From: an uncultured Acidobacteriota bacterium | Lineage (GTDB): Bacteria > Acidobacteriota > Thermoanaerobaculia > UBA5066 > Gp7-AA6 | DNA: 64,000 bases | Direction of reading: 5' to 3' | Assembly (NCBI GenBank): GCA_963733815.1 | Contig: CAVTEG010000015.1 | Location: 171,910 to 235,909, forward strand | Shown here: piece by piece, positions 47,227 to 63,867 of the stretch | Numbering within the stretch: the stretch's first letter is position 1 | How the letters are laid out: each line of letters starts with the position of its first letter | Translations under genes and position numbers: made by a program | The notes under the pieces: model-generated | What the model saw: the letters and a program-made list of their open reading frames with translations, nothing else | Databases searched by the model: none | Told to the model about the DNA's origin: nothing

Positions 47227-49080
47227 ATGAGACTCCGGATCGGTCTGCTCGTCCTCGCCCTTCTGATCGCGAAAGAGATGTCGGCCTGGACGTACTCCGA
47301 GCACCGCGCGATCACGGCGAAGGGCATCGAGTCGCTCGATCCGCGCAACCGCGCCGCACTCGACGCGCTCTGGGCTCTCGCCCAAGCGGGGGAGGCGCGG
47401 CTCTGCGAGGCCCCGGACGCCGGAGCCCAGGGGCCAAAGCCCACCTGCATCGATTTGGCGGCCTGGGGTGCGATCGCGGGAGACCACTCCTGCTCGCCCG
47501 AGGACATGTTGCGAGTCATCCTTCAAAGCGACTGGATCCTGAAGGTCGCGGGCGTGGCAGCGCGGGTGGATGAAGGGCTCGCCAAGGCCAAGAACGAGGC
47601 AATACGCACGAACGTCCGGATCGAGGGGGACCTCGGGCTGGAGCGCAACGATCCGGAATACAGCACCCGCGCCCGAGGGAACAACGCGCATTTCCTGCTG
47701 CCCCGCAAGGTCGACGACGCAGCGGAATATGCGGCCCAGTCGCTCTCCGGCGAGATCAACGCCATCGGGATCTACGTCGTCTTTCACGCGGCGGCCCTCG
47801 AGCATGCGAACCGTGCGGACGCGGACGGCGCGAGCGCCCGCCTGGCCCTGGCTCTGGAGCTTTTCGGCGTCCACTTCCTGGAGGACGCCTTCTCCGCGGG
47901 TCACATCGCCGGCTCGTGGGGCAACGCCGCCGAGCGGAAGGGGACCCACGACTACTACAACCAGCACGGCCTCGACGCGGAGAGCTGGAATCGGACGCCG
48001 ATGATTCTCTTCGGCGACGGCTACGCCCGCGCGGAGGACATCGCGCGGGCGGGAGCGGCCGTCGGCGAAAGTCTGTCGCAGTTCGTTGCCGCCGGAAGGC
48101 CGGATTCGGAGGCGGCTCGGGCCGTGGCCGGAGCGACGATCCCGGCGGCGGCCGAGGACGGAACGTTCGACGTCTGCCGCTCGACGCAGATGCCGCTGGG
48201 AAAAGCGACCGAGGGACTGAGCGTTCTCCTCGGAGAGGTTCTGCGCGAGACGCCCGTCCCGTTTCGCGGACCGGGCTATGCGTCCCTGCCTCGGTTTCGG
48301 GCCGAGATCGGTCCCTTCATCGGCGTGGCCAGCGGCGGCGCCGTGATCGGATCGGATCAGGGATTCCCGCCCGGTTCGGATGGCGCCGTACAGGGGCAGC
48401 TGGACGTGGGCGTGCGGCTGGGGCTCGGCCTCGACGCATTGCTCGGCGAGAACGGGGACGGGCTCGTGTTCGTGGAGACCGCGTTCATCAGCCAGTCGCG
48501 GTCCACTGGGGGCTGCCCCGCCTGCCAAAACGATCCGCTGGTCCAGGAGTTCGTCCCGGGAGTTCCGGCGCGGTCGGGCATCCAGTTCCGGCTGCGCCTC
48601 CCGTACTGGGTCATCCCGGGCGACCTGGTGCTTGCCGCGCCCGTGCTCGCGTTCACCAATCCCAGGCTCCTCGAGAAGATGGCCATCAAGGCCGCCGACG
48701 GCGGGCTGATTCCGTGGCAGCGTCGGATCGCTACGGACGTGGGCGCGGTCCAGTTCGTCGCCGGCCGCGAGTTCGGAGTCACACTCTTCGGCTACGGCAC
48801 CAAGGACGCGTTTCTCGCGGTCATTGGCGGCCCGAATCAGTCCGTGCTCTTACCGCTCGCGGTCAAGTCGCTCCAGTGGGATTTCCCGGTCGTGGAGTAC
48901 CGGCCTTTTCGCGAGTTCGGGACGCGTTACACATTTGCGACGTTCCTCCAGCTGGGGCTGGGCTTCGACCACCCGGTCTCGACCGAGATCGTGGGTCTGC
49001 CCGGCGTTCCGGCGCCGCAGCTCCAGAACCGCTATTTCGCGTACCTGCGGATCTACTTCGACGGTCGCCGCTACTTCTGA
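47227..49080 (+). CDS. Secreted hypothetical protein; mature N-terminus begins with Trp (possible Zn-dependent PLC/P1-nuclease-like domain)
   Basis: The signal peptide cleaves at ...KEMSA|WTYSEHRAIT. His/Asp-rich motifs occur in the first 250 aa. The C-terminal half is Gly-rich and beta-rich and ends in YF. Confidence 0.5.
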   Translation: MRLRIGLLVLALLIAKEMSAWTYSEHRAITAKGIESLDPRNRAALDALWALAQAGEARLCEAPDAGAQGPKPTCIDLAAWGAIAGDHSCSPEDMLRVILQSDWILKVAGVAARVDEGLAKAKNEAIRTNVRIEGDLGLERNDPEYSTRARGNNAHFLLPRKVDDAAEYAAQSLSGEINAIGIYVVFHAAALEHANRADADGASARLALALELFGVHFLEDAFSAGHIAGSWGNAAERKGTHDYYNQHGLDAESWNRTPMILFGDGYARAEDIARAGAAVGESLSQFVAAGRPDSEAARAVAGATIPAAAEDGTFDVCRSTQMPLGKATEGLSVLLGEVLRETPVPFRGPGYASLPRFRAEIGPFIGVASGGAVIGSDQGFPPGSDGAVQGQLDVGVRLGLGLDALLGENGDGLVFVETAFISQSRSTGGCPACQNDPLVQEFVPGVPARSGIQFRLRLPYWVIPGDLVLAAPVLAFTNPRLLEKMAIKAADGGLIPWQRRIATDVGAVQFVAGREFGVTLFGYGTKDAFLAVIGGPNQSVLLPLAVKSLQWDFPVVEYRPFREFGTRYTFATFLQLGLGFDHPVSTEIVGLPGVPAPQLQNRYFAYLRIYFDGRRYF

Positions 49081-50042
49081 GTCGGAGCGGGCGCAGGCTG
49101 ATAGGCCATCTCGCGCAGCAGCGCGATCCGCTTCAGGATCGGTGGATGCGTCGCGAAAAGGTTCGCGAACCAGCCTTCCTTCTGCTCGAGGCTGCCGCCG
49201 CGGGGATCCTCGATGCAGAGGTGCGCCACGCCCTGCTTGATCGAGGGCGTGGGCCCCTTCTCGGCGGCGATCTTCTCGAGGGCCGAGGCGAGGGCGAGCG
49301 GGTTGCGGGTCAGCTCGGCGCCAGAGGCGTCGGCGAGGTACTCGCGCTGCCGCGAGACTGCCATGGCCACCAGCTGTGCCACGAAGGGGGCGAGCAGGAT
49401 CGACACGACCCAGACCACGGCGAAGAGAAGCCCGGCCCCGCCTCCGCCTCCCTTGGTATCGCGGCGCCGGCCCAGACCCCAGCCGAACCCGCGGCGGCCC
49501 CAGTCGGAGAGCAGCAGGATCGCGCCCGCGAGCGCCGCGACGACCGTCATCAGCCGCACATCGAGATTCCGGACATGCGACATCTCGTGCGACACGACCG
49601 CCTGGAGCTCGTCACGGTCGAGCTTTTCGAGAAGCCCGCGGGTGACCGCGATCGACGACTTCTCCGGGCCGGTGCCGGTGGCAAAGGCGTTGGGGTCCGC
49701 GTCCGGGATCACGTAGATCGCCGGCTTGGGCAGCCCGGAGGCGATCGCCATTTCCTCCACGACGTTGTCGAGAACCCGCTGCGGCGGGTCGGAAGGGTCG
49801 AGCGGCGCGGCTCGAGTGGACTCCAGGACCGCCCGGTCGCCGCCGTGGAGGGACCACCAGGCCGACATGCCTCCCACGCAGAGTGCCCCGAGTGTGGCGA
49901 GGGGGAGCCCGGGCGAAAAGCCGCCCGCATAGAGCATTCCGTCGGCGCCGAGACCCAGGAAGACGAGCAGCAGGACGAAGCCGGCGATGAAGAGGCGCGT
50001 GTTGGAGATGTTGCGCTTCTGCTGCTCGTAGAGGTTGGTCAC
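49071..50042 (-). CDS. htpX: M48-family zinc metalloprotease HtpX
   Basis: HEMSHV is in a TM context and the C-terminal motif REYLAD is present. The GTG start overlaps the lemA stop. Confidence 0.8.
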   Translation of the reverse strand: MTNLYEQQKRNISNTRLFIAGFVLLLVFLGLGADGMLYAGGFSPGLPLATLGALCVGGMSAWWSLHGGDRAVLESTRAAPLDPSDPPQRVLDNVVEEMAIASGLPKPAIYVIPDADPNAFATGTGPEKSSIAVTRGLLEKLDRDELQAVVSHEMSHVRNLDVRLMTVVAALAGAILLLSDWGRRGFGWGLGRRRDTKGGGGGAGLLFAVVWVVSILLAPFVAQLVAMAVSRQREYLADASGAELTRNPLALASALEKIAAEKGPTPSIKQGVAHLCIEDPRGGSLEQKEGWFANLFATHPPILKRIALLREMAYQPAPAPTQK

Positions 50043-50629
50043 GCCCCCGGCTGCGGCCGGATGTTCAGGTCCACCTTCGGCACCGCCCTTTCGGCCGCGT
50101 CCTTGATCTCGAAGAGCTCGACGGTCTGGAACTTGAACGTCTGCGCGATGAAACTGTCGGGGAACATCTGCTGCGCCGTGTTGAAGCGCGTCGCAATGTC
50201 GTTGTAGAACTGGCGAGCGAACCCGATGCGGTTCTCGGTCGAGGACAGCTCCTCCATCAACGCGCGGACGCTCTCGTTGGCCTTCAGCTGCGGGTAGTTC
50301 TCGGCCAGGGCGAAGAGCCGCGAGAGAGTCTGGGTCAGCGCGTTTTCCTTCTCGGCGGAGTCGGCGACCCCGCGCGCGGCCACGGCCGAGTTGCGCGCCT
50401 GGATCACCTTCTCGAGCGTGTCCTGCTCGAACTGCATCTCTCCCTTGACCGCCGAGACCAGGTTGGGAATCAGGTCGTGCCGGCGCTTCAGCTGCACGTC
50501 GATCTGCTTCCACGCGTTGGCGACCTGGTTGCGCAGGCCGATCAGGTTGTTGTACCGCCAGATCGCCCACATGGCGCAAAAGACCGCGCCGACCACGAGG
50601 ATCAGCAAACAGCCGCCGATAGCTCCCAT
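50039..50629 (-). CDS. lemA: LemA family protein
   Basis: An N-terminal TM helix is followed by the conserved LemA core (NLIGLRNQV..., ENYPQLKAN). Confidence 0.85.
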   Translation of the reverse strand: MGAIGGCLLILVVGAVFCAMWAIWRYNNLIGLRNQVANAWKQIDVQLKRRHDLIPNLVSAVKGEMQFEQDTLEKVIQARNSAVAARGVADSAEKENALTQTLSRLFALAENYPQLKANESVRALMEELSSTENRIGFARQFYNDIATRFNTAQQMFPDSFIAQTFKFQTVELFEIKDAAERAVPKVDLNIRPQPGA

Positions 50630-50691: not shown

Positions 50692-51816
50692 TCACGCATT
50701 GAGGCCCTGGCGCAGCTCGCGCGCCAGGATCTCGACGGCGGAACGGGTGCCTCCCGTGAGCTTTTCCTTCCAGACCGTCTCGGTCTCGAAGCGGCGGTCG
50801 CCGATCGCCTCCGCCCACGGGCGCAGCGCCGCGTCGAGCTCTCCCGCCGACCAGACGTCGCCGCCCCGCTTGCGGACCATCGCGATGACGTACGGAACGA
50901 TGCGGATGAACGCCCGGAGCGACGTCGAGCTCTTGATCGAGTACTTGCGTCCGGCGAACGCCGCGGGAAAGGCCCGTGCCGCGGCTTTGAAGTAGTTGAG
51001 GAAGAAGCGCCGCGCGTTCTCCCGGAACTCCCGGGCGACGCGGCCCCCCGCCGTATCGACCGCCGCGAAGACGTCGCGCAGCTCGTCGGCGAGCGAGGCC
51101 TGCGTGACCGATCCTTTTCCGATGCCGAGCACCTTGATGGAGCCCTTCAGAGGCGAGCTCTCGTCTTCGTTGAGCGTGCGGATGACGTCGTGGGCCGCCG
51201 CGAGGTTCTCGTCGCGGTAGAGGCGGCGCCCCGCCAGCGAGATCAGGTGCGAGGGATTCAGCTTCGTGTGCTTGCTGTTGATGGTGACGAAGAGCTCGAC
51301 GACCTGGTCCGGCGTGAGGTTGTCGAACACCACGGCGGGGACCTGGAAGTCGCGGAGATTGTGCTTTTCGGCGATCTGGTGGAGCGCGAGGAGCCGGTGC
51401 TGACCGTCCAGGGCGCGGAGGATGCCGGACTCTTCGGGAAGCTTCAACGAGCCGGCGTCGGCGCGTCCCCCGGACGGGGTGAACTCCAGGCGCTTCTCCG
51501 AGACGAGGAGCACGCTGCCCGGGATCGCCGGCAGCGAGCCGGCGTCGGCCTGCTGGAGGTAGTAGGCCACGAGCTCGTCGATCTTCTTCTTGATGATCGG
51601 ACGCTGAAACGCGTGCTCGGACGCCGCGATCTTCTTTTCCAGGAGGTCCCAGTTCACCCGCCCCGCCGGTTTGTGCTTGCCGCGGGTGGTCTCGCTGCCG
51701 GGGCCGAAGGAGAGGACCTCGAAGCCGACCAGGGACTGCAGATCGGCGCCCGAGAGCAGGGCCTCGTAGAAGCGGACGCCGAACTGGTTCAGGCGAAGCG
51801 AGGGAACCGAAATCAT
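50692..51816 (-). CDS. DGQHR-domain protein (DndB-like family), stand-alone
   Basis: The LDGQHRLLAL motif has flanking conservation. The start is MISVPSL. The upstream 54 codons of the track ORF translate the heptamer palindrome and are non-coding. Confidence 0.7.
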   Translation of the reverse strand: MISVPSLRLNQFGVRFYEALLSGADLQSLVGFEVLSFGPGSETTRGKHKPAGRVNWDLLEKKIAASEHAFQRPIIKKKIDELVAYYLQQADAGSLPAIPGSVLLVSEKRLEFTPSGGRADAGSLKLPEESGILRALDGQHRLLALHQIAEKHNLRDFQVPAVVFDNLTPDQVVELFVTINSKHTKLNPSHLISLAGRRLYRDENLAAAHDVIRTLNEDESSPLKGSIKVLGIGKGSVTQASLADELRDVFAAVDTAGGRVAREFRENARRFFLNYFKAAARAFPAAFAGRKYSIKSSTSLRAFIRIVPYVIAMVRKRGGDVWSAGELDAALRPWAEAIGDRRFETETVWKEKLTGGTRSAVEILARELRQGLNA

Positions 51817-51921
51817 GTCCACCTCCTGGCCCGCGGGTGCCCTCCGGACGCGGGTCGCCGGTAGGGCGGCGCAAAGCGTATACCGGCTTTTTGGCGATTG
51901 AGCCCAGGAGATTTCAGCCGC

Positions 51922-51993
51922 CGTTGCAGGTTGCAGGTTACAGGTTGCAGGCGGGATCCGGCCCCCTGAAACCTGCAACTTGAAACTTGCAAC
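51922..51993. promoter_or_regulatory. Large imperfect palindrome built from tandem GTTGCAG-like heptamers in the divergent DGQHR / MFP promoter region
   Basis: GTTGCAGGTTGCAGGTTACAGGTTGCAGG ...14 nt... CCTGAAACCTGCAACTTGAAACTTGCAACC. Confidence 0.4.
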
Positions 51994-52340: not shown

Positions 52341-53135
52341 ATGGAACCTCCGGAAACGATAGCATTCCGGCGTTCGTCCGACACCGTGAAAAGAGTCCTG
52401 TTTTCGGGCCTTCTCCTGCTCGGCCCGGGCTTGCGCCCGGCCGCGGCGCAGGACCGCGTGTACGCGTCTCACCTGATGGTCGACCAGGACGTCGCGGTCG
52501 CGTCGCGGATCTCGGGCGTCATCGCGTCGATCGCCGTGGACCGCGGAGCGGTCGTGACGCAGGGGCAGGAGCTCGCCGCGCTCGATCCTCGCGAGGCCGA
52601 CGCCGACGTGCGCGAGGCGAAGGAAGACATGGAGTTGAAGAAGGCCGAGCACGCCCGGGCGGAGTCGCTGGCCGCGTCCAAGATCACGAGCGCGGCGGAC
52701 CTGGACGAGAAGAAGGCCCAGTACGCCGTGGCCACGGCGCGGTGGGAGAAGGCCAAGACGTTGCGGGACTACACCGTGATCCGGGCGCCCTTCGCCGGTG
52801 TGGTCACCGAGAAGTACGCCCGCATCGGCCAGAAGGTCACCGAGGACAAGCCCGAGCCCTTGTTCAAGATCACGGCGGTCGAGCCCCTGCTCGCCCGGAT
52901 CTATCTGCCCGAGGAAGAGCTGCTCCGCGTCAAAGTCGGGGACCGCGTCGACATCGTCGCCGAGCGATTCCCGGACGTGAAGACGACCGGCGAGGTCCAG
53001 TTCATCAGCCCGACTGTGGACGCCGCGAGCGGGACCTTCCAGGTCGTGGTTCGGGTCAAGCGGGAGCCCGCGCGTACGGTGCTGCGGCCCGGCATCGCGG
53101 TCCAGGTGCGGTTCCCCAAGGCCGCGGCGAAGTAG
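52341..53135 (+). CDS. HlyD-family periplasmic adaptor (membrane fusion protein), short form
   Basis: An N-terminal anchor or signal (LFSGLLLLGPGLRPAAA) is followed by a biotinyl-lipoyl-like segment, a coiled coil and a beta-barrel segment. Confidence 0.7.
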   Translation: MEPPETIAFRRSSDTVKRVLFSGLLLLGPGLRPAAAQDRVYASHLMVDQDVAVASRISGVIASIAVDRGAVVTQGQELAALDPREADADVREAKEDMELKKAEHARAESLAASKITSAADLDEKKAQYAVATARWEKAKTLRDYTVIRAPFAGVVTEKYARIGQKVTEDKPEPLFKITAVEPLLARIYLPEEELLRVKVGDRVDIVAERFPDVKTTGEVQFISPTVDAASGTFQVVVRVKREPARTVLRPGIAVQVRFPKAAAK

Positions 53136-53151: not shown

Positions 53152-53872
53152 CATGCCGCCGACCGCTCCCCGCACCTCCGCCCGTCTCCGGTCGGCCCGC
53201 GACCGTGTGCTCGTGCACGACATCAAGAACATGTCCTTCCGGCTCCGGCTGCTGCTGTCCAATCTCGACGAGCACTGGGAAGACCCCGACTTCCGCCGGA
53301 CCGTCCGCGACCTGCTCGCCTCCTGTGTGGAGCGGCTGGAGGGAATCGCAGGCCGGTTCGTGGAACGCGAGGATGCGGTTCTCATCAAGGTGGCCCTGGA
53401 CGTCAACGATCTGCTGCGCCAGGTCGCCGAGCTCCCGGGCCGCAGGTCGGGCCGAAAAGGCGCGGAGGCGAGTCCCGGCGTTTCCCTGGCACTCGGAGAT
53501 GCGCCTCGAATCTGGGGGGATCCCTACTACCTCGCCGACGCCGTGGCGAGCCTGGTCGACAACGCCTGCGAGGCCGCGGCGCCGGCAGGCCGCGTGCTCA
53601 TGAGGAGCTTTTCCGCCGGCAGCCCGCGCCGACCCCGGGCCGTCATCGAAATCATCGACAATGGAGCCGGGATGACTCCCGAGTTCCTGCGCGATCGGCT
53701 CTTCCAGCCCTTCGAGACAACCAAGCCGCAGGGCGTGGGACTCGGTCTCGCGACCGCCAACCAGATCGCTCGCCTGCATCGCGGGACGATCCGGGTCCTG
53801 AGTCAGCCCGGCGGCGGTACCCTCGTGCGGCTGTCCTTTCCCGGGATCCCGGCCGAGCCGGGCGAGGCCTAG
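53152..53872 (+). CDS. Cytoplasmic sensor histidine kinase (no sensor domain)
   Basis: The H-box is LVHDIKN, and the N/G1/G2 boxes are present (DNACEAA, IIDNGAGM, GVGLGLA). Confidence 0.75.
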
Positions 53873-54145
53873 CAGGTTGCTGAAAGAGGGTGTGGGATGG
53901 CGTTACGAGCGCCACGGGGTCAGATGCAAGGAAGCGCGACGACGGCGATGCCCTTGCATCGTCGAGGAGCGATGACGATGCAGATGGCCCCGCGCCGCCG
54001 TAACCCGAAGGGTGGACGGCAATTTGCCGGCGGCCGCTCAATCGCGATAGAGCACCGAGTCGCAACACTTTGGAACGGGCGCCGGATGCAAATTGCCGGA
54101 CACGACACCCGCATCCATCTTTCAGCGGCCTGCTAGGAGGCGCGC

Positions 54146-55523
54146 GGTGGGCGGTCAGGCCGAAGGCGCGATCGGCCGCATCCTCATCGTCGAGGACGAC
54201 GAGGTTCTCCTCGAGCAGCTGACCTGGGCGTTGAAGGGCAAGTTCGCGGTTTCGTCGGCGCGCGACGCCACGCATGGCAAGGCCCTTTGCGACGCGGAAC
54301 CGGACCTCTTTCTTTTCGACATGCGCCTGCCTCCGTCGCAACAGGTCCAGGAGGGGCTCGAGTTGTTGCGCCACGCGCGCCGGCGCGACCCGGAGGCCAC
54401 GGTCGTCATGATGTCGGGCGAAGGGGAGAGGGGCGACGCCCTGAAGGCGATCGCCCTGGGCGCCTTCGACTTCTTTCAGAAGCCGATCGACACGGCGGAA
54501 CTGCTGGTGATCCTGAACCGCGCTCTCGAGCGCCGGCGTCTGATGTCCGAGAACCGCGAGCTGCGCCGGGCCGTCTCCCAGCCGGCCGTCTCCGAGCGTT
54601 TGATCGGCGAGAGCCCGGCGCTGCGCCGCTTGAACAGCGAGATCGACCGTGTCGCCTCCGGCGACGCGACCGTGCTGCTCCACGGCGAGAGCGGCACCGG
54701 CAAGGATCTGGTGGCCCGGACGATCCACGCGCGCAGCGGACGCCGCGACCGCCCCTTCGTCGCCGTCAACGTGGCGGCGATGCCGGAAACGCTCGTCGAG
54801 GCGGAGCTGTTCGGTCACGAAAAGGGAGCCTTCACCGGAGCCATCGCATCGCGTCCCGGGCGCTTCGAGCTCGCGCACGGCGGCACGCTGTTTCTCGACG
54901 AAATCGGCACGCTCTCGCCGGCGGCCCAGGCGAAGCTGCTCCGCGCCATCGAAAGCCGGGAGGTCGAGAGAGTCGGCGGCCGCCGCGCGATCCCGGTGGA
55001 CTTTCGCCTGATTTCGGCCACCAATGAGGATCTGGAGGCGCGGGTGGGCGCCGGGAGCTTCCGGGAGGACCTGTACTACCGCATCAACACGATCCCGATC
55101 CGGATTCCGCCTCTGCGGGAGCGAGGCGACGACGTCGCGCTGCTGGCGCGGCACTTCCTCGGAGAGCTTCGCGCCAAGCATGGCCGGGGACCCACGCGCC
55201 TCTCGGAGGCGGCCCTGGCGCGCCTCTCGGCGCATCCGTGGAGAGGCAACGTCCGGGAGCTCCAGCACGCGATCGAGACGCTGGTGGTCTTCGCCGAAGG
55301 TGACGAGGTCGTCGAGGAGGATCTGCCGCGGGCCCTCCGGGAGCGCGCCTCGCCAAAGGCCGTCCACGCGTCGACGTCGTTCGCCCAGGCCGTCGAGGAC
55401 TTCGAGCGGCGACTGCTCTCAGACGCGATCGCCGCGGCCGGCGGCGTGAAGGCCGAGGCGGCGCGCAAGCTGGGTCTCGATGCGAATCAGATCAAGTATC
55501 TGTGTCGGAAATACGGGCTCTGA
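54146..55523 (+). CDS. Sigma-54-dependent response regulator (NtrC family)
   Basis: It has a receiver domain, an AAA+ sigma-54 activation domain (GESGTGKD, GAFTGA, ESELFGHEKGAFTGA-like) and a C-terminal Fis-type HTH. The GTG start has an AGGAGG RBS. Confidence 0.9.
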
Positions 55524-55530
55524 TTTATGG

Positions 55531-55568
55531 GTGAAAAACTCAACCGCGGTGAGAAAAGTTTTCACCAA
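55531..55568. promoter_or_regulatory. Candidate enhancer (UAS) palindrome for the NtrC-type regulator
   Basis: GGTGAAAAACT-N17-AGTTTTCACC lies about 90-120 bp upstream of the sigma-54 promoter. Confidence 0.4.
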
Positions 55569-55648
55569 GTCTTAGACTCGCGCCTGCCGCGAATCGTTAA
55601 ATTACTGAAAGCAAGCTATTTGTTTATCGTACCCGGGGCGGGAAAACC

Positions 55649-55664
55649 TGGCGCGAACCTTGCG
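55649..55664 (+). promoter_or_regulatory. Sigma-54 (-24/-12) promoter: TGGCGCGAACCTTGCG
   Basis: It matches YTGGCACGrNNNTTGCW with the GG and GC correctly spaced. It is followed by RBS AGGAGGG and ATG 55697. Confidence 0.6.
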
Positions 55665-55696
55665 CTCTAGTCGTTGGAAAGAGGAGGGAAGAAACA

Positions 55697-56218
55697 ATGG
55701 CGAACGAAGTCAAGATCAAGCTGACGGACGCGCAGAAGGAAAAGATCCGCGAGGCCACGGGCAAGGACATGCCCGAGATCCGCGTGGAGAGCTTCGGAGG
55801 CAACGCCGCGCTGTCTCCGACGACGAAGGTCGTCTCGGCTCGCGCGATGGGCAAGTCGATTGGCGCGCGGGCGACGGGCAAGTCGGTCGGCGCTCGGGCG
55901 ACGGGCAAGTCGATTGGCGCGCGAGCCACGGGCAAGTCGGTCGGCGCTCGGGCGACGGGCAAGTCGATTGGCGCTCGGGCCACGGGCAAGTCGGTCGGTG
56001 CGCGGGCGACGGGCAAGTCGATTGGCGCTCGGGCCACGGGCAAGTCGGTCGGTGCGCGGGCGACGGGCAAGTCGATTGGCGCGCGGGCGACGGGCAAGTC
56101 GATTGGCGCGCGGGCCACAGGCAAGTCGATTGGCGCTCGGGCCACAGGCAAGTCGATTGGCGCTCGGGCGACGGGCAAGTCGATTGGCGCTCGGGCAACG
56201 GGCAAGGCCCAGTTCTAA
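55697..56218 (+). CDS. Leader-plus-tandem-repeat small protein: about 50-aa amphipathic leader followed by 14 units of ARATGKS(I/V)G
   Basis: Translation gives MANEVKIKLTDAQKEKIREATGKDMPEIRVESFGGNAALSPTTKVVS, then 13 full nonapeptide units plus a terminal ARATGKAQF. It has no Cys, no signal peptide, a strong RBS and a sigma-54 promoter. Confidence 0.7.
   Translation: MANEVKIKLTDAQKEKIREATGKDMPEIRVESFGGNAALSPTTKVVSARAMGKSIGARATGKSVGARATGKSIGARATGKSVGARATGKSIGARATGKSVGARATGKSIGARATGKSVGARATGKSIGARATGKSIGARATGKSIGARATGKSIGARATGKSIGARATGKAQF
55838..56215. repeat. 27-bp in-frame tandem repeat (x14; 54-bp higher-order period over the first 8 units)
   Basis: Repeats of the form GCGCGGGCGACGGGCAAGTCGATTGGC. 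The I and V variants alternate at first, then five consecutive I units follow. Confidence 0.8.
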
Positions 56219-56240
56219 GGAACCCGCTTCACTTCGAAAC

Positions 56241-56269
56241 GCCCCGCTCCGGCGGGGCGTTTCTCTTTT
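56241..56269 (+). terminator. Rho-independent terminator (functional in both directions between convergent genes)
   Basis: A GCCCCGC-tccg-GCGGGGC stem is followed by GTTTCTCTTTT. Confidence 0.6.
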
Positions 56270-56273
56270 GCGT

Positions 56274-58463
56274 TCACCACGCCACGGACTGCACCCAACG
56301 CTTGAGCACGCGCCACGCGCGCGCCGCGTAAGAGGCGCGCCTTCCATAGATCTTGGCGTAACCGTGCATTCCGGCGTAGAGGCTGCCGTCCTCGTTGTCA
56401 AAAACGGCGAGGGCCACGAAACGCTCGGGCTGCTCCTGGGGCGCCGAGGGATCCGCATTCGCCGCGGCGGTCTTGGGTTGTGCGAGGGCGGCCGGGGCGA
56501 TCGAGACGATCGTGCCGTGAACGGGCCGCGGATGCCCGAGGAAAAGCGCGGTGACCGGCGCGTTCGGCACGAGATCTTCGAGAAGACGTTCGGAAACGGT
56601 CAGGTCCGCCGCCATCCGCCGGTCCTCGCCGACCTCGGCGAGAAGAGTCCCCGCGGGCACGGAGCGCCCTTCGAGGTCGCGTACGTAGGGAGTCAGCAAG
56701 TGCCCCGTCGAAGGGCTCTTCACCAGCAGGCGCTCCTCGCGGGCACGTCCGTTCTTCAAGGCCGCGTCGAGGGAGACGCCCCGGGTCTCGGATGCGAAGA
56801 CGCGCGCCGGCTCGGCGGCCTGCCGCGCCAGGCTCGCGTCGCGCGTCGCGCGCTCGCGCTCGGAAGTGAGCCGCTTCGTCGCTTCCGACGCGGCCGCGCT
56901 GACGAGCTGGAAGACCGGCTGCCCGGCCGTCACGCGATCCCCCTCCTGGGCGAGCGCGCGCGTCACGACCCCGTCTTCCGGAGCCTCCAGTCGGATCGTC
57001 ACCGTGGGCCGGAGCAGGGCGGGTGAGCGGAGTGTGCGCCGGCTCCAGGGGAGGAAGAACAGCAGGGCGAGCACGGCGGCGCCGGCGAAGAGCGCCGCGC
57101 GGATACGGTGCGACATGAGCAGCTCCTTCTTGTCGAGATAGAAGAGATGGCCCGTGCGCGTGACCAGGCGGACCCGCTTGCGAAAGAGGCGGTACAGCGT
57201 CAGGACCAGGAGCACGATCGCCCAGTTCGGGAAGAAGTGGTGGTAGAGGTTGTAGAGGAGCCCGCCGATGAACCGCATGACGACGCCCACCCACGCCAGC
57301 GCGAGCGAGCCGAAGATCCAGTAGATCCGGCGCTTGCGCCGTGAGACCAGGGGCACCTCGACGGGAAGCCTCAGCACGTATCGCTGGAAGCACGCCCCGA
57401 TGTAGCGGAACGATTCCTCCCGCAGGTCCGGAATTTCGAGCACGCTCGAGAGCGCGTAGTAGCCGTCGATCTTGATGAGCGGGTTGATGTTGAAGAAGAC
57501 CGTCGAAACTCCCGTGAAGAGCATCGTCTTGAACGCGATCTCGTGCACAAGAGTGTCGGGATAGGAGACCACCCACGCGAGCGTGGCCACCGAACACATG
57601 ATGGCCTCGATGTAGATGCCCGCCGTCGTGACCCAGAGCCGGTGCCACTTGTTCGTGAAGAGCACCGAGTCGGTCGTGTCGCAGTAGAACGCCGGCGTGA
57701 AATAGAGGAGCGCCAGGCCTATGTCGTGGACTTCGCCGCCGTAGATTTTGGTGACGTACGCGTGCGAGAACTCGTGGAACAGTCCGATGAAGGTCAGAAT
57801 GCAGAAGAACTGCACGACATCGAGAAGTGGTTTCGACGTCAACGCGTAGAGCTCGATCGTTCCGCTCCAGATCGCCCCCCAGTGCACGAGGATGACCCCG
57901 AAAGCCCAGCCGGCGAAGATCAAAGCCGCCGCCACGACGGGAGGCGTCCAGATCCAGCGCACGTACTTCACGGTCCGGTCCAGGAAGCGGTTGGGGTCGA
58001 GGACGTGGAAGAGCAGGAAGAACGGGTTGAAGCCCTCGGCCTTCTCCTCGGCGGCGCGCTGGCGGGCCGTCTTCGCGTTCGCGAGGAGCTTGAGGTTCCT
58101 CTCGGCCGCGGACTGCGCGATGAGGCCCATCTCGCGGAGCATTTCCGCGTACTCGCGGACGACGGCCATCTCGATCTTCTCGCGTGGGAACATCGCCTGG
58201 TACTCGGCATGGATCTGCGCCAGCGTCCGCGTCCCATCGAACATCTGGCAGAGCCCCCACTCGGGGTCGTCGAAGTTGTAGTACTTCGTGGTCTCCGGGT
58301 TCTTCACGACCCAGTTGATCTCGCCGAGCTGCACGACGCGCCGGATCACCGCGTCCGATCGGATGGCCGGGCGGTCGCTGGCGATGCCGTGACGGGCCGC
58401 GAGGGCCGCCGCGCCTTCTTCCGGGCGCGTGGCGGCGAGCAAACGTCCGGGGCGCGCGCTCAC
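56274..58463 (-). CDS. Tri-domain protein: PqqD-like RRE domain - M50/S2P-like zinc metalloprotease - HlyD-like adaptor
   Basis: The GTG start overlaps the upstream stop (GTGA). The N-terminus IRRVVQLGEINWVVKNPETTKYYNFDDPEWGLCQMFDGTRTLAQIHAEYQ...EYAEMLREMGLI fits the PqqD/RRE profile. The membrane core has HEFSHAY (HExxH) and NPLIKIDGYY (S2P NxxPxxxLDG motif). The C-terminus has a biotinyl-lipoyl-like segment, a coiled coil and a beta-barrel segment. The 384 codons of the track ORF upstream of the GTG overlap the neighbouring gene and are spurious. Confidence 0.75.
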   Translation of the reverse strand: MSARPGRLLAATRPEEGAAALAARHGIASDRPAIRSDAVIRRVVQLGEINWVVKNPETTKYYNFDDPEWGLCQMFDGTRTLAQIHAEYQAMFPREKIEMAVVREYAEMLREMGLIAQSAAERNLKLLANAKTARQRAAEEKAEGFNPFFLLFHVLDPNRFLDRTVKYVRWIWTPPVVAAALIFAGWAFGVILVHWGAIWSGTIELYALTSKPLLDVVQFFCILTFIGLFHEFSHAYVTKIYGGEVHDIGLALLYFTPAFYCDTTDSVLFTNKWHRLWVTTAGIYIEAIMCSVATLAWVVSYPDTLVHEIAFKTMLFTGVSTVFFNINPLIKIDGYYALSSVLEIPDLREESFRYIGACFQRYVLRLPVEVPLVSRRKRRIYWIFGSLALAWVGVVMRFIGGLLYNLYHHFFPNWAIVLLVLTLYRLFRKRVRLVTRTGHLFYLDKKELLMSHRIRAALFAGAAVLALLFFLPWSRRTLRSPALLRPTVTIRLEAPEDGVVTRALAQEGDRVTAGQPVFQLVSAAASEATKRLTSERERATRDASLARQAAEPARVFASETRGVSLDAALKNGRAREERLLVKSPSTGHLLTPYVRDLEGRSVPAGTLLAEVGEDRRMAADLTVSERLLEDLVPNAPVTALFLGHPRPVHGTIVSIAPAALAQPKTAAANADPSAPQEQPERFVALAVFDNEDGSLYAGMHGYAKIYGRRASYAARAWRVLKRWVQSVAW

Positions 58464-60919
58464 GGCAGAAGCGGCCAGATCTTGTTCCAGAGATACCGGA
58501 GAGGCTTCCGGAACAGCGCCGTGATGACGCGCCGCGTGCCGACGGAGACCTTGCCGTTGCCGAGCATGCCGGTCTTCAGCCTCCCGTCGGAATTCGGAAC
58601 GGCCACCTCGGCGATCAAGAAACGCTGGTCGCCTTCCTCGCGGATCCGGGGCGCGACGCGGGCGACTTCTCCACGGAAGAGCGTCCCGGGGTAGGGGTTG
58701 AACTTCAAAGCCGTCTTCTGGCCCGGCCGGACCAGGGCCGCGTCGGCCTCGGGAACGGCGACCTCGGCCGTTACGGTGCGAACGTCGGCGACGACGCAGA
58801 GCTCCGCGCCTCGCGGAAGAAGCTGACCGACCCTCTCCTCGATCCGCGGAGTCACGATGATGCCGGCGGCAGGTGCAGTCAACCGGGTGCGCGACAGGCG
58901 GTCTTCGGCGAGAGCGATGCGCGCGCGGGCCTCGCGCCGGCGCGCCTCGGCGTCGAAAACAGCGCCGGCGTCCGCATTCTGGCGCGACCGCGCAACGTCG
59001 ACGTCCGAAAGCGCCAGCGCCGACTTGGCCTCCGCCAGCGCGGCCTGGTAGCTCTCGTCCTTCAACGTCGCGATGACGTCGCCGGCCTCCACACGGTCGC
59101 CCTCCCGCCGCAGCACGGCGCCGACGACGCCGTCCACCATCGACGTGACGGCGGCGCGGCGGCCCGGGAGGACCCGTGCGGGCCCGGTGATGCGCAGGGG
59201 CCACGGTGCGACGAACAGGATCAGGGCGGCGACGGCCGCGCCGATTGCCCATCGCCGTCGGCGGGACAACGGGATCGCCGAGAGCTTGCGCTGCTTCTCC
59301 AGGAGCGGTTTCCAGAAGCCGGCCAGCGGCACCTGCTGGTAGAGCTGCGCATTGCGGACGGCCACGGTGGCCTGGTTGACCAGGATCGACAGGAGGTCTC
59401 GCGTCTCCTCTTCGAACACCAGCGGCTCCTTGCTCTCGAATCCGAGAGCGCCGAGCTTTCCTTCCTCGTCCTTGAGGAGGACGCCGTAGAACGACCTCAT
59501 GCCCGTTTCCTGGAAGATCGCCCGGAACTTCTCCTCGGTCTCGGGCCGGTCGGCGGTGATCGCGCCGTCCTCGGTCTGCGTCACCGCGGTGTCGGTCCCG
59601 GAGAGGAAGATCCACTGAAGCAGCTCTTCCATCCGCCGGGCCTCGGGGTTTTTCCGGTCCACCTCGGTCGTGCCGGAGAGCGCCCCCAGCCGCAGCTTCC
59701 CCTTCTCCTGGATCGCAATCCCGCAGCTGTCATAGTGGATCAACGCCGAGGTGGCGTTGACGATCGTCTGCATGACCTTGTCGAGATCGAGCGTGGCCGT
59801 GATCTCTCGGGACACGGCCAGGAGCGCGTCGAGCTCCTCGACCTTCTTCTCGGCCTCGTGCTGCCTCGCCGTCCGCAGGGCCCGGACGGCCTGGCGGGCG
59901 ACGTCCTGCAAAAGCTCCTCGTCCTCGGCCGAGAACTCGGGGTGCCGGCCGCGCTTGTTGGCGAGGACGAGCGCTCCGATCGTGATTTCTTCTTCGACGA
60001 GAGGCGCCGCCAGGACCGACTGGATCGGATAGCCGGTGTCCTCCTCCGCCCCCGGGTCCCCGGCGGGAATGCGGTTGCGCCGTACGGACGTCTGATCGGC
60101 GATGACGTCGCCGACGATCGAGGCGCCGACCGCCTCGGGCGCCGGGGTGACGTCGTAGTTCTCGTTGACGGCAGTGGCGGCCAGGTTGACCTCGCCCTTC
60201 GCGCTGTCGAGCACCCAGAGCGACGCCGATTCGGCCGTGACGAAGTCCGCGGCCTTGCGAACGATCAGCGCGGACAGCTCGTCGGTGTCGATCGTCGAGC
60301 CGAACGCCTTCGAGAGGTCGTAGAGGTTGGTCAGCCGCTCGATCGCGTGGAGCATGCCGACGGTCTTGCGCTCGGACCGCAGCGCCCGTCCCAGAGCCGG
60401 CGCCGCCTGCTCGAGGAATCTCTCCAGGCGCGCCAGCGCGTCTTCGGCGTCGGGCATGTGGCTGAAGTAGAGAGCGAGGAGTCCCACCACAAGGCCCTCG
60501 GCGTGGAGCGGCACCGCGAGGCAGGCGCGGAGCGTCGGGGGCAGCCCCCGCACGAAGGGATCGGAGGTTGCCAGCTCTTCTCCGGTCAGGACGATGGCCT
60601 GACGATCGCGGACCAGGTCATGGATGATGCCGGTCTCGCGCGGCGCCGATCGCCTCAGGAGCTTGTCGACTCCCGGGCCGGAACCCGCGATGCAGAGGAA
60701 CAGGGGATGAACGGTGTCGGGAGCCCAGAGCAGCGCGGCCTCGGCACCGGTCATGGTGATGCTCCATCGCGCCGCCCATCCCGACGTCTGCGAGAGGTTC
60801 TCGCAGAGGGCCAGCTCGGCGAGAGCCGAGACCTCGTCTTCGGACCCCGAGACGTGGTGCTCGGACTCGTCGGCCTCTTCGACCGGTTCGTCTTCCGTAT
60901 CTTCGGGCTCGTCCGCCAT
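58460..60919 (-). CDS. Triple-GAF-domain protein fused to a TM segment and a HlyD-like adaptor
   Basis: An acidic N-terminus is followed by three GAF-like modules (about 60-480 aa), a TM helix (WAIGAAVAALILFVAPW) and an MFP-like C-terminus (biotinyl-lipoyl-like segment, coiled coil, beta-barrel). Confidence 0.75.
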   Translation of the reverse strand: MADEPEDTEDEPVEEADESEHHVSGSEDEVSALAELALCENLSQTSGWAARWSITMTGAEAALLWAPDTVHPLFLCIAGSGPGVDKLLRRSAPRETGIIHDLVRDRQAIVLTGEELATSDPFVRGLPPTLRACLAVPLHAEGLVVGLLALYFSHMPDAEDALARLERFLEQAAPALGRALRSERKTVGMLHAIERLTNLYDLSKAFGSTIDTDELSALIVRKAADFVTAESASLWVLDSAKGEVNLAATAVNENYDVTPAPEAVGASIVGDVIADQTSVRRNRIPAGDPGAEEDTGYPIQSVLAAPLVEEEITIGALVLANKRGRHPEFSAEDEELLQDVARQAVRALRTARQHEAEKKVEELDALLAVSREITATLDLDKVMQTIVNATSALIHYDSCGIAIQEKGKLRLGALSGTTEVDRKNPEARRMEELLQWIFLSGTDTAVTQTEDGAITADRPETEEKFRAIFQETGMRSFYGVLLKDEEGKLGALGFESKEPLVFEEETRDLLSILVNQATVAVRNAQLYQQVPLAGFWKPLLEKQRKLSAIPLSRRRRWAIGAAVAALILFVAPWPLRITGPARVLPGRRAAVTSMVDGVVGAVLRREGDRVEAGDVIATLKDESYQAALAEAKSALALSDVDVARSRQNADAGAVFDAEARRREARARIALAEDRLSRTRLTAPAAGIIVTPRIEERVGQLLPRGAELCVVADVRTVTAEVAVPEADAALVRPGQKTALKFNPYPGTLFRGEVARVAPRIREEGDQRFLIAEVAVPNSDGRLKTGMLGNGKVSVGTRRVITALFRKPLRYLWNKIWPLLP

Positions 60920-60971: not shown

Positions 60972-61307
60972 TCAGAAGCTGGAGACCGCGGCCTCCATGT
61001 CGTCGTGGATCTCGAACACCGAGTCGAGCTTGGTCATCTGGAGGAGCTTGCGAATCTGGGGGCCGGCGCGGAGGAGCTTGGTCTGGCCCCCTTCCTTCTG
61101 CGACTGCGTCAGCGCCCGCACCAGAGCTCCGAGGCCCGAGCTGTCGAGGAAGCCCACGCCCGAAAGATCCACGAGCAGACGGGTATGGCCCTCCTCCAGC
61201 AGACGCGTGACGGTCTTCTTGAAGGTCGACTCGGCGTCGCCGATGACGAGGTCTCCCGTCACGGTCAGCACCGTTACGGAGCCGTCTTCATGAGTTTGAA
61301 GTTCCAT
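60972..61307 (-). CDS. STAS-domain protein (anti-sigma-factor antagonist SpoIIAA-like)
   Basis: A 111-aa ORF. The LVDLSGVGFLDSSGLGALV motif contains the conserved phosphorylatable Ser region. Confidence 0.8.
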   Translation of the reverse strand: MELQTHEDGSVTVLTVTGDLVIGDAESTFKKTVTRLLEEGHTRLLVDLSGVGFLDSSGLGALVRALTQSQKEGGQTKLLRAGPQIRKLLQMTKLDSVFEIHDDMEAAVSSF

Positions 61308-63179: not shown

Positions 63180-63441
63180 GGGCTTCTTCAGAAAATCGTT
63201 GGGAGTCCTTTTCCGATGGTTTCCGGCAAATCCGTAAGGGCCCTCACCCCGTACAAGACGAGGAGGCAGGAACCGAGTTCGGGGCGTCCGGAGGCTTGAA
63301 ACCGGGGGAGCGGCTATAAGATCTCGCGATTCAACCGGTCCGGTACGCGAACCGGGTTGGCGAGTCACTCGACGAGGCCATGGCGGTCTCGCCGATTCGT
63401 TGGGGAGCCCCCGCAAAGGGGGCAACGAAAGGAGACCTTGG

Positions 63442-63867
63442 ATGAAGAAGGGTGATCTGACGGTGAAGGCTCTCGGCCTCGCGGTCGCGGGCGTCCTCGC
63501 AGGCTCCGGCCTGATGGCGGCGCTGCCGGCCGGCGGGGTGAAGGGCGACGAGGCGAGGCCGGCTTCGACCGACGCGAAGGCCCAGGACAAGGCGGGCGCG
63601 ACGTCGGACAAGCACGTCTGCAAGGGCCAGAACGCGTGTAAGGGCAAGGGCGGCTGTAAGGCCGGCGACAACGGATGCGCAGGCAAGAACTCTTGCAAGG
63701 GCAAGGGCGGCTGCGCTTCGGCCGACATGAAGCACTCCTGCAAGGGCATGAACTCGTGCAAGGGCCAGGGCGGCTGCAAGAGCGGCGACTCCGGTTGCGC
63801 GGGCAAGAACTCTTGCAAGGGCAAGGGCGGCTGCGCGGTTCCGGTGGCTCCGAAGAAGGCGGCCTAA
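63442..63867 (+). CDS. Secreted 12-Cys repeat peptide (two tandem 6-Cys units), candidate metal-binding or RiPP metallophore precursor-like
   Basis: The signal peptide is MKKGDLTVKALGLAVAGVLAGSGLMAA. The core contains two copies of xCKGxNxCKGxGGCKxGDxGCAGKNSCKGKGGCA. A good RBS AAAGGAGA is present. Confidence 0.65.
   Translation: MKKGDLTVKALGLAVAGVLAGSGLMAALPAGGVKGDEARPASTDAKAQDKAGATSDKHVCKGQNACKGKGGCKAGDNGCAGKNSCKGKGGCASADMKHSCKGMNSCKGQGGCKSGDSGCAGKNSCKGKGGCAVPVAPKKAA

Follow-up and report, generated by a model that had tools for sequence, protein, structure and literature searches.

Cyanobactin PatE and graspetides such as plesiocin are precursors of peptides ribosomally synthesized and modified post-translationally (RiPPs), with multiple or repeated cores, and M50 proteases mature peptide products in the epipeptide YydF and enterococcal Eep pheromone pathways. 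The multi-core microviridins (PMC5934393) and the fungal repeat proteins processed by Kex2 (PMC7329392) are further precursors of this type. Fusions of a RiPP recognition element (RRE) with a site-2 protease mark leader-bearing precursors and remove their leaders in daptide clusters (PMC10036551, Ren et al. 2023). The DNA analyzed here, called the window below, is a stretch of 64,000 nucleotides (nt) from an uncultured Acidobacteriota bacterium (contig CAVTEG010000015.1). At positions 55697-56218 of its forward strand, it carries a real and conserved, unannotated gene for a repeat protein, next to the gene of an RRE-M50-MFP fusion (MFP, membrane fusion protein).

The favored reading, to which a probability of about one half is given, is that this open reading frame (ORF) encodes a pro-protein. 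It would be the dedicated substrate of the RRE-M50-MFP fusion and two MFP partners, exported under the guidance of its leader and processed by the protease. At best reading, this would be a new variation on leader-guided proteolytic maturation, coupled to an uncharacterized adaptor-based export apparatus. No description of the repeat-protein family was found in the literature.

A conserved leader and its repeat array

The repeat gene is composed of the following parts:

55697-56218 (+): repeat-protein gene, unannotated, translated into 173 aa
55697..55837 (+): leader or pro-region of 47 aa, MANEVKIKLTDAQKEKIREATGKDMPEIRVESFGGNAALSPTTKVVS, with a conserved core at residues 1-40, MANEVKIKLTDAQKEKIREATGKDMPEIRVESFGGNAALS
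55838..56215 (+): tandem array, from Tandem Repeats Finder, translation and unit alignment
55838-56188 (+): 13 full units ARA(T/M)GKS(I/V)G, 13 x 27 bp
56189-56215 (+): unit 14, truncated, ARATGKAQF, the C-terminal end of the protein
56216-56218 (+): stop codon

Tandem Repeats Finder reports a period of 27 with 13.7 copies and 87% matches at 55838-56206, and the self-identity of the array is 0.87 at lag 27 versus ~0.26 at lags 26 and 28. A first, sequence-only reading had described 14 perfect nonapeptides after a 50-aa leader. The tandem array is real, but the leader measures 47 aa, and the 13 full units are followed by a truncated one. At the protein level, M replaces T in unit 1, and I and V both occur at position 8; otherwise, the full units are uniform. 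The reported alternation of I and V, with a super-period of 54 bp, is present in units 1-9 (identity of 0.958 at lag 54) but ends after unit 9, and units 9-13 form a homogeneous 27-bp block (identity of 0.954). The count of 14 units is that of the assembly, and the frameshifts of long-read relatives (see below) indicate that the copy number and frame of such arrays depend on read-level accuracy. The 126-aa tail (A29 G27 R14 K14 S13 T13 I9 V4 M1 Q1 F1) has a net charge of +28 and is devoid of D, E, C, P, W and Y. The G+C content at third codon positions (GC3) of the gene, 0.82-0.91, is like that of the neighboring genes.

That the array is translated and under selection as a protein follows from the variation between units, which falls mainly on third codon positions. 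Among the 13 full units, six of the eight variable nucleotide columns are third positions, and the only amino-acid changes are I/V and one T-to-M. Over 36 intact arrays of the family, the variable columns at codon positions 1/2/3 number 104/72/215 (chi-square p ~2e-19), a count that takes in degenerate edge units and arrays that are phylogenetically non-independent. In one relative with PRANT x25 (L010), the identity is 0.88 for nucleotides versus 0.98 for amino acids. Recent expansion by slippage or recombination, as initially proposed, is hence part of the story only: the differences between units are mostly synonymous, so the peptide is maintained.

The same counts bear on the suspicion that the array is an assembly artefact or a non-coding repeat, that is, a simple repeat, collapsed or expanded, that happens to be open. 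Four long-read loci from metagenome-assembled genomes (MAGs) do have frameshifted arrays (L022, L026, L031 and L032), one of which shifts out of frame and then back; these are probably indel errors. The closest short-read relative (P0008) has four units only, which could be a collapsed array. However, intact arrays of the same design are present in dozens of independent assemblies, many of them of comparable length, and the third-position bias within the arrays is joined by a strongly conserved leader and by a conserved ribosome-binding site, promoter and terminator. As regards coding, this explanation is close to refuted, and as a whole, it is hardly credible.

The family comprises ~118 distinct sequences and is essentially confined to the Thermoanaerobaculia (Acidobacteriota). 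A scan of one genome per species yielded 38 loci, all from Thermoanaerobaculia/Acidobacteriota MAGs except for one MAG labelled Acidithiobacillales. With the whole protein as query, only seven relatives were retrieved, low-complexity candidates swamping the search, and the leader by itself recovered more: an exhaustive phmmer search with the 47-aa leader gave 79 cluster representatives at E<1e-3. The very large proteins topping this search (P0134-P0136) were discarded, as they summed weak matches to unrelated repeated domains. A leader of ~40 aa, with 19 invariant columns, is common to every member. Over the 38 genome loci, it is 62-91% identical, versus 48-88% for the adjacent M50 protein. 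Neither the repeat protein nor the leader has a match in Pfam, NCBIfam or PDB; a leader profile compared with PDB gave only a chance match of LTxxQ-type helix cap to Spy/CpxP (E>0.4).

Behind the leader, the arrays are species-specific: ARAAGKSIAG-type 9-mers, RANTP x27, KAT x17, MRAAKS, MKAQKA, AAPRG x20, AGAKVPTK, TAAKYAGK and 12-18-mers. Clear arrays are recognizable in 72 of the 118 distinct sequences, with units of 3-21 aa; 62 are cationic, six neutral and four acidic (units such as AQELS, LKDDS and NDLSV). The bipartite design read from the single gene, a conserved leader with variable repeats, therefore holds family-wide. The array has a median length of 90 aa (range 39-162), independent of the length of the unit (log copies versus log unit length, slope -0.99), which is what a tail functioning as a whole would lead one to expect. 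Since the unit sequences are under selection as well, the tail is not a neutral spacer. The evolution of these proteins is unusual: the leader is near-frozen, and the repeats are replaced wholesale between species and yet kept uniform by selection within each.

A universal cleavage motif was sought in the units; none is common to all types, and only the R-A dipeptide is in modest excess (31 of the 66 distinct unit types, 21 expected). Many members open the array with (V/I/L)-S/T-A-R, for example, VSARA, ISARS or LTARR. The excess and the array-start motif may mark a recurring processing site, or they may be a compositional effect. The C-terminal residue is hydrophobic (F, V, L, I, A or Y) in 50 of the 72 arrays.

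Alternatively, the nonapeptides could form a beta-roll or beta-solenoid, like the RTX repeats of type 1 secretion substrates. The nine-residue unit and the HlyD-type neighbors recall RTX proteins, and the best of five AlphaFold2 models, and apparently also a second one judging by mean pLDDT, has strands with an 18-residue period at residues ~85-170 (pLDDT 73-86). The prediction further contains a low-confidence helix at residues 11-20 and disorder at 34-82, and in three of the five models, the mean pLDDT is 42-46. Against such a fold, a calcium-binding Asp and the GGxGxD motif are both missing, a charge of +28 without any acidic residue makes stacked ladders implausible, and no single fold explains unit lengths of 3-21 aa across the family. 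Confident but invented beta-solenoids are a documented product of AlphaFold2 when repeats are perfect (PMC11795689). The solenoid of the distal repeats was rejected as an artefact of this kind, given the lack of counter-charges and of any Foldseek counterpart (best E 1.2, TM-score <0.3), and a folded repeat protein is considered very improbable.

The seven-gene cassette and its promoter

The repeat gene is part of a cassette of seven genes. The genes of a short MFP, a minimal histidine kinase and a sigma-54 regulator precede the substrate gene, and those of the RRE-M50-MFP fusion, a GAF-MFP and a STAS protein are convergent on it:

52341..53135 (+): short MFP (HlyD/RND-adaptor type, HlyD-type periplasmic adaptor), ~250-264 aa, start at 52341 or 52386; first cassette gene
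53153..53872 (+): minimal histidine kinase, 239 aa, H-box HDIKN and HATPase_c (2e-19)
54147..55523 (+): sigma-54-dependent response regulator with receiver, AAA+ and HTH_8 domains (Sigma54_activat 8e-69, Response_reg, HTH_8)
56274..58463 (-): RRE-M50-MFP fusion, 729 aa, GTG start, GTGA overlap with the stop of the upstream gene
58128-58373 (-): RRE/PqqD-like domain of the fusion, aa ~31-112 (model and Pfam PqqD)
58460..60919 (-): GAF x3, a single transmembrane segment (aa 557-575) and an MFP domain, 819 aa (Pfam/NCBIfam, hydropathy)
60972..61307 (-): STAS protein of the anti-sigma-factor-antagonist type, 111 aa (TIGR00377, 73.5 bits, above cut-off); last cassette gene

This order is kept in every locus with enough flank, with one substrate gene per locus. 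In four distant loci (L035, L037, L039 and L042), the DGQHR gene flanking the cassette of the window is absent and the cassette is retained; L035, L037 and L042 lack the hydrolase as well, and where upstream genes were checked (L035 and L042), they differ. A member with acidic repeats on a different contig (L043) likewise has the convergent M50-MFP gene and the promoter. The STAS gene adjoins the GAF-MFP gene in 35 loci, including distant ones with differing other flanks.

The sequence-only reading had recognized the neighbor as an RRE-M50-HlyD gene, which is borne out by the structure prediction. Residues 31-112 of the fusion have the fold of an RRE: AlphaFold2 (residues 1-140) models them with pLDDT >90 as three strands followed by three helices (beta3-alpha3). 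The top six Foldseek matches in PDB are the lasso-peptide RREs TbiB1 and B1, solved with leader peptides (target TM-score 0.70, root-mean-square deviation 2.8 Å, probability 1.0, E-value only 0.02). Pfam finds M50, HlyD_3 and PqqD (E 0.024, over the full profile length). The site-2-protease core has the motifs HEFSH (aa 230-234) and NxxPxxxxDG among ~5-7 hydrophobic segments, the last of which is followed by a predicted periplasmic HlyD-type domain (aa ~480-729). The NCBIfam model of the daptide RRE-metalloprotease, NF041824, is matched at positions 17-360 of 379 with 165.5 bits (E 2e-48), below its cut-off of 300.

The repeat tail and the M50-MFP protein appear to be coupled, as the latter is more similar among loci that share a repeat type. 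At equal divergence of the regulator, the identity of the M50-MFP protein is 0.74 for the same repeat type versus 0.59 for different ones, and in a closer bin, 0.89 versus 0.64. A single hypervariable region tracking the repeat type was considered and rejected, the difference being uniform along the protein.

The other cassette proteins complete the picture of an adaptor system under two-component control. The short MFP matches Pfam HlyD_D23 and HlyD_3, as well as TIGR01730 (152 bits). The GAF-MFP is predicted to have its GAF sensor domains in the cytoplasm, one membrane segment and a periplasmic HlyD-type domain. The minimal kinase aligns only with the C-terminal kinase part of PrsK (TIGR02916 positions 482-679); no hydrophobic (membrane) segment was found in it by hydropathy and no sensor domain in the Pfam/NCBIfam scans. 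The NCBIfam model closest to the regulator is PrsR of the PEP-CTERM box (446 bits, cut-off 502.6). Between the stop of the kinase gene and the likely start of the regulator gene (GTG 54147, preceded by AGGAGG) lie ~275 nt (53873-54146), and in the related locus L001, the two genes overlap by 4 nt.

The regulatory elements around the repeat gene are the following:

55529..55566 (+): two adjacent dyads, GGGTGAAAAACTCAACC and GGTGAGAAAAGTTTTCACC, ~120 nt upstream of the -24/-12 element; candidate upstream activator sites
55649..55663 (+): sigma-54-type -24/-12 element, TGGCGCGAACCTTGC, 48 nt before the ATG
55682..55688 (+): ribosome-binding site AGGAGGG (sequence reading; an AGGAGG-like motif precedes the ATG in all loci)
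56236..56273 (no strand assigned): intrinsic terminator, a G+C-rich hairpin (12-bp stem) followed by a T-run, between the convergent genes

The location of the gene just downstream of a sigma-54 promoter, also noted at first sight, is conserved: in 40 of 43 related loci, TGGC-N7-TTGC precedes the ATG by 42-63 nt, the spacer being variable, and the other three have near-matches. An alignment of 42 upstream regions shows a conserved block, gGtTGAaAAAnTCAaCc ... AAAgTTTCAACC, at the dyads, and an A/T-rich conserved patch between the dyads and the -24/-12 element. The regulator gene is directly upstream of the repeat gene across loci; the regulator would bind the dyads and is the probable activator of the promoter. 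The GG/GC spacing, the upstream dyads and the activator gene directly upstream are those predicted from sequence for a sigma-54 unit. No sigma-70-like site was found in 55450-56400, and the hairpin of the terminator is kept in one relative (L044). The -24/-12 promoter, the dyads, the lack of a sigma-70-like site, the terminator and the strong ribosome-binding site together point to a monocistronic sigma-54 unit.

Outside of the cassette, the DGQHR-domain (DndB-like) protein (50692-51978, -) is 87-98% identical in the comparison of L001-L041, in the very species whose cassette proteins reach only 50-75%. For the M50-MFP protein, the range is 48-88% (50-88% in one comparison with DGQHR), and for the regulator, it is ~55-89%. 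Judging from these identities, the cassette diverges far faster than its neighbors. The long DGQHR ORF has a 7-bp tandem repeat at its 5' end (GTTGCAG x4.1, 51923-51951), which is probably upstream of the true DGQHR start, in the divergent intergenic region shared with the short-MFP operon. An HtpX-type M48 protease gene immediately upstream of the cassette flank (49071-50579, -; 3695-5236 in L001, where it adjoins LemA) belongs to the general synteny and not to the cassette. Near the end of the window, a Cys-rich repeat ORF with CKGKNxCKGKGGC motifs (63400-63867, +; repeats 63610-63836) matches NF050166, the BufA2 bufferin-type copper metallophore precursor, with E 1e-13 but below cut-off. 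On the syntenic contig L001, the corresponding Cys-rich gene is followed by MbnB/TglH-family and HvfC genes; hence, a bufferin-type RiPP cluster probably begins at the end of the window.

Proteobacterial counterparts and the proposed pathway

Nearly full-length homologues of the M50-MFP protein, 24-28% identical, were found by tblastn in 86 plasmid records. Five operons, located on plasmids and chromids, were inspected: Pseudosulfitobacter NZ_CP085155.1, Pontibrevibacter NZ_CP049813.1, Niveispirillum NZ_CP025615.1, Variovorax CP063167.1 and the E. coli plasmid NZ_CP081687.1 (loci L047, L048, L051, L052 and L053). All five carry a giant gene of 13-49 kb for a repeat protein annotated as LEPR-XLL, DUF4347, tandem-95 or Ig-like, a probable adhesin. 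It is followed in each by a short MFP, a mid MFP and a PqqD-M50-HlyD protein, and in three of them also by TolC; no ABC transporter is present in this recurrent operon. Four of the giant proteins, read at the N-terminus, start with a basic stretch and then, in their first 20-65 residues, show (A)LE(P/S/A)Rx(L/M)(L/F); the annotation of the fifth is LEPR-XLL.

The triad of short MFP, mid (GAF-)MFP and PqqD-M50-MFP is present, role for role, in the cassette of the window. In blastp, the M50 proteins match with 1e-30 to 2e-57 and the mid adaptors with up to 3e-19. The best matches of the GAF-MFP are mid adaptors, and those of the Rhodobacterales also combine GAF and HlyD domains. The short MFP has short adaptors among its best matches (Pontibrevibacter 1e-8, Pseudosulfitobacter 5e-6), but the scores of mid adaptors are close behind. 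In E. coli, the apparatus occurs in 24 of 5,426 complete genomes, mostly on plasmids and under generic names. No publication on the RRE-M50-MFP apparatus was found in the literature, and for Thermoanaerobaculia RiPPs, LEPR-XLL and DUF4347 as well, the daptide paper was the only relevant one to emerge.

The following pathway is proposed for the pro-protein. The minimal kinase and the sigma-54 regulator would switch on the monocistronic gene from its -24/-12 promoter with the upstream dyads. The ~40-residue leader would then be bound by the RRE domain in the cytoplasm and cut off by the site-2-type M50 domain at the inner face of the membrane. The disordered tail (126 aa, +28) would be handed to the three HlyD-type adaptors, assembled across the periplasm, and would end up, intact or cut, in the periplasm, at the cell surface or in the medium. 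The GAF domains of the middle adaptor may gate this process or report back to the kinase.

The first reading of the letters had likened the protein to a multi-core precursor. On such a reading, recognition of the leader would be followed by one cut in every unit, made by the M50 domain or a different protease, to release many copies of a single short, species-specific peptide, here a nonapeptide such as ATGKSIGAR. This peptide would be a signal or an antimicrobial, possibly modified by enzymes encoded elsewhere, and kinase and regulator would form an auto-induction loop. A conserved leader, a hypervariable core and an RRE protein are the hallmark of RiPPs, M50 proteases mature peptide products in daptide clusters (PMC10036551), and the exact unit sequence is under strong purifying selection. 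Species-specific units and a cassette evolving fast in comparison with DGQHR are typical of recognition or antagonism systems, and the R-A excess (31 of 66 unit types, 21 expected) could reveal a recurring cleavage site. However, no tailoring enzyme was found among the seven conserved cassette genes with Pfam and NCBIfam, no cleavage motif is common to all units (the acidic AQELS, NDLSV and SAGQLDT lack both K and R), array length is conserved and copy number is not, and the homologous machinery elsewhere is tied to giant proteins and not to peptide precursors. Of the multi-core label, the bipartite design and the RRE neighbor thus stand, and as a description of the product, it is unlikely. 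A processed, exported repeat protein is favored over a multi-core RiPP because of the synonymous variation, the missing tailoring enzyme, the homology to a giant-protein machinery and the constant array length.

Proteases of the site-2 type classically act in signaling, and the repeat protein could accordingly be a substrate of regulatory intramembrane proteolysis. The conserved N-terminal domain would be its functional part and would bind a partner in the cytoplasm, for example, the sigma-54 activator, the kinase or the STAS protein. The tail would be a fast-evolving disordered spacer or degron, and the circuit would be switched by M50 cleavage, in the manner of SpoIVFB and pro-sigma-K. No neighboring protein is as conserved as the leader, a degree of conservation that a mere export tag would not usually show; the cassette holds a sensor-less kinase, GAF domains and a STAS protein; and the frequent hydrophobic C-terminal residue (50 of 72 arrays) resembles degradation tags. 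Selected units and a constant array length, on the contrary, do not suit a neutral spacer, and a purely cytoplasmic switch would have no evident use for three periplasmic adaptor domains. Moreover, the proteobacterial homologues keep the triad beside giant proteins while lacking kinase, regulator and STAS protein. This explanation is regarded as improbable, even more so than the multi-core one.

Several points weigh against the export of a processed pro-protein. The near-perfect conservation of the units is no less suited to a peptide product than to a polymer. The cassette encodes neither an energizing transporter (ABC, RND or MFS) nor a TolC-like outer-membrane factor, and no TolC-like gene was detected in the 64-kb window (tblastn with three proteobacterial TolC, E<=1e-3). 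The leader has no detectable similarity to LEPR-XLL (NF012209; no match at E<=10, hhalign probability 0.1%), so that the substrate analogy rests on gene context. The co-variation of the M50-MFP protein with the repeat type, spread over the whole protein, may reflect co-inheritance instead of specificity. As the loci of the Thermoanaerobaculia are broadly syntenic, the conservation of the neighborhood within the class is weak evidence; synteny alone proves little, since the flanking DGQHR gene is also conserved across most of the class. Finally, the searchable literature yielded no experimental evidence, including for the proteobacterial homologues.

A bolder and doubtful proposal, ranked with the multi-core one, combines both lines. 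The RRE-M50-MFP triad would be an unrecognized leader-guided, protease-coupled export pathway of diderms, serving giant repeat proteins (probable adhesins) in Proteobacteria. In Thermoanaerobaculia, it would have been re-tooled under sigma-54 two-component control to release many short, species-specific, unmodified peptides from a polyprotein. If true, this would be a bacterial counterpart of the eukaryotic multi-copy precursors of pheromones and antimicrobial peptides, for kin-specific signaling or antagonism. In the cassette, RiPP-style leader recognition, by a fusion of RRE and site-2 protease, is linked with HlyD-type adaptors, and no ATPase is encoded alongside. The family could make such a pathway experimentally testable, as a substrate of 173 residues is far easier to handle than one of 10,000.

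Comparison with known systems

Compared with RiPP clusters in general, the locus has a bipartite precursor and, beside it, the gene of an RRE-containing protein; the cassette has no post-translational tailoring enzyme. With the leader peptidase of daptide clusters, the fusion shares an N-terminal RRE followed by an M50 core, and a precursor with a conserved leader is encoded nearby. It scores 165 bits, below the cut-off of 300, and has an additional C-terminal MFP domain that is absent from daptide proteases. The oxidative decarboxylase, aminotransferase and methyltransferase of daptide clusters are also missing from the cassette, and the precursor ends with a repeat array and F, in contrast to the invariant T of daptides. 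Like multi-core RiPP precursors, the repeat protein has one conserved leader followed by tandem copies of a short hypervariable peptide. Unlike them, it is accompanied by no cyclase, ATP-grasp or other modifying enzyme, its units are not flanked by conserved recognition sequences, and copy number is inverse to unit length.

The substrates of RTX systems (HlyA with HlyB, HlyD and TolC) share nine-residue glycine-containing repeats encoded beside HlyD-family genes. The GGxGxDxUx motif, any Asp and an ABC transporter in the cassette are lacking here, and the conserved recognition element is N-terminal, whereas the signal of RTX substrates is C-terminal. The kinase core, the GAF region and the sigma-54 regulator come closest to the models of PrsK and PrsR (TIGR02916 and TIGR02915), all below cut-off (PrsR 446 versus 502.6 bits, PrsK 127 versus 300 bits). 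GAF domains and kinase core, joined in PrsK, are on separate proteins here, and the substrate has no PEP-CTERM sorting signal.

The proteobacterial operons share three adaptors, of which the middle one has GAF domains (Rhodobacterales) and the third PqqD/RRE plus M50, and an adjacent repetitive substrate with a short conserved N-terminal motif. The substrate is much smaller here (173 aa versus 4,000-16,000 aa), it is built of 9-aa units in place of folded domains, and its leader bears no relation to LEPR-XLL. There is no adjacent TolC gene, and the substrate gene is convergent and monocistronic, whereas it is the first of the operon in Proteobacteria. A kinase, a sigma-54 regulator and a STAS gene, absent from the proteobacterial operons, are added in the cassette of the window.

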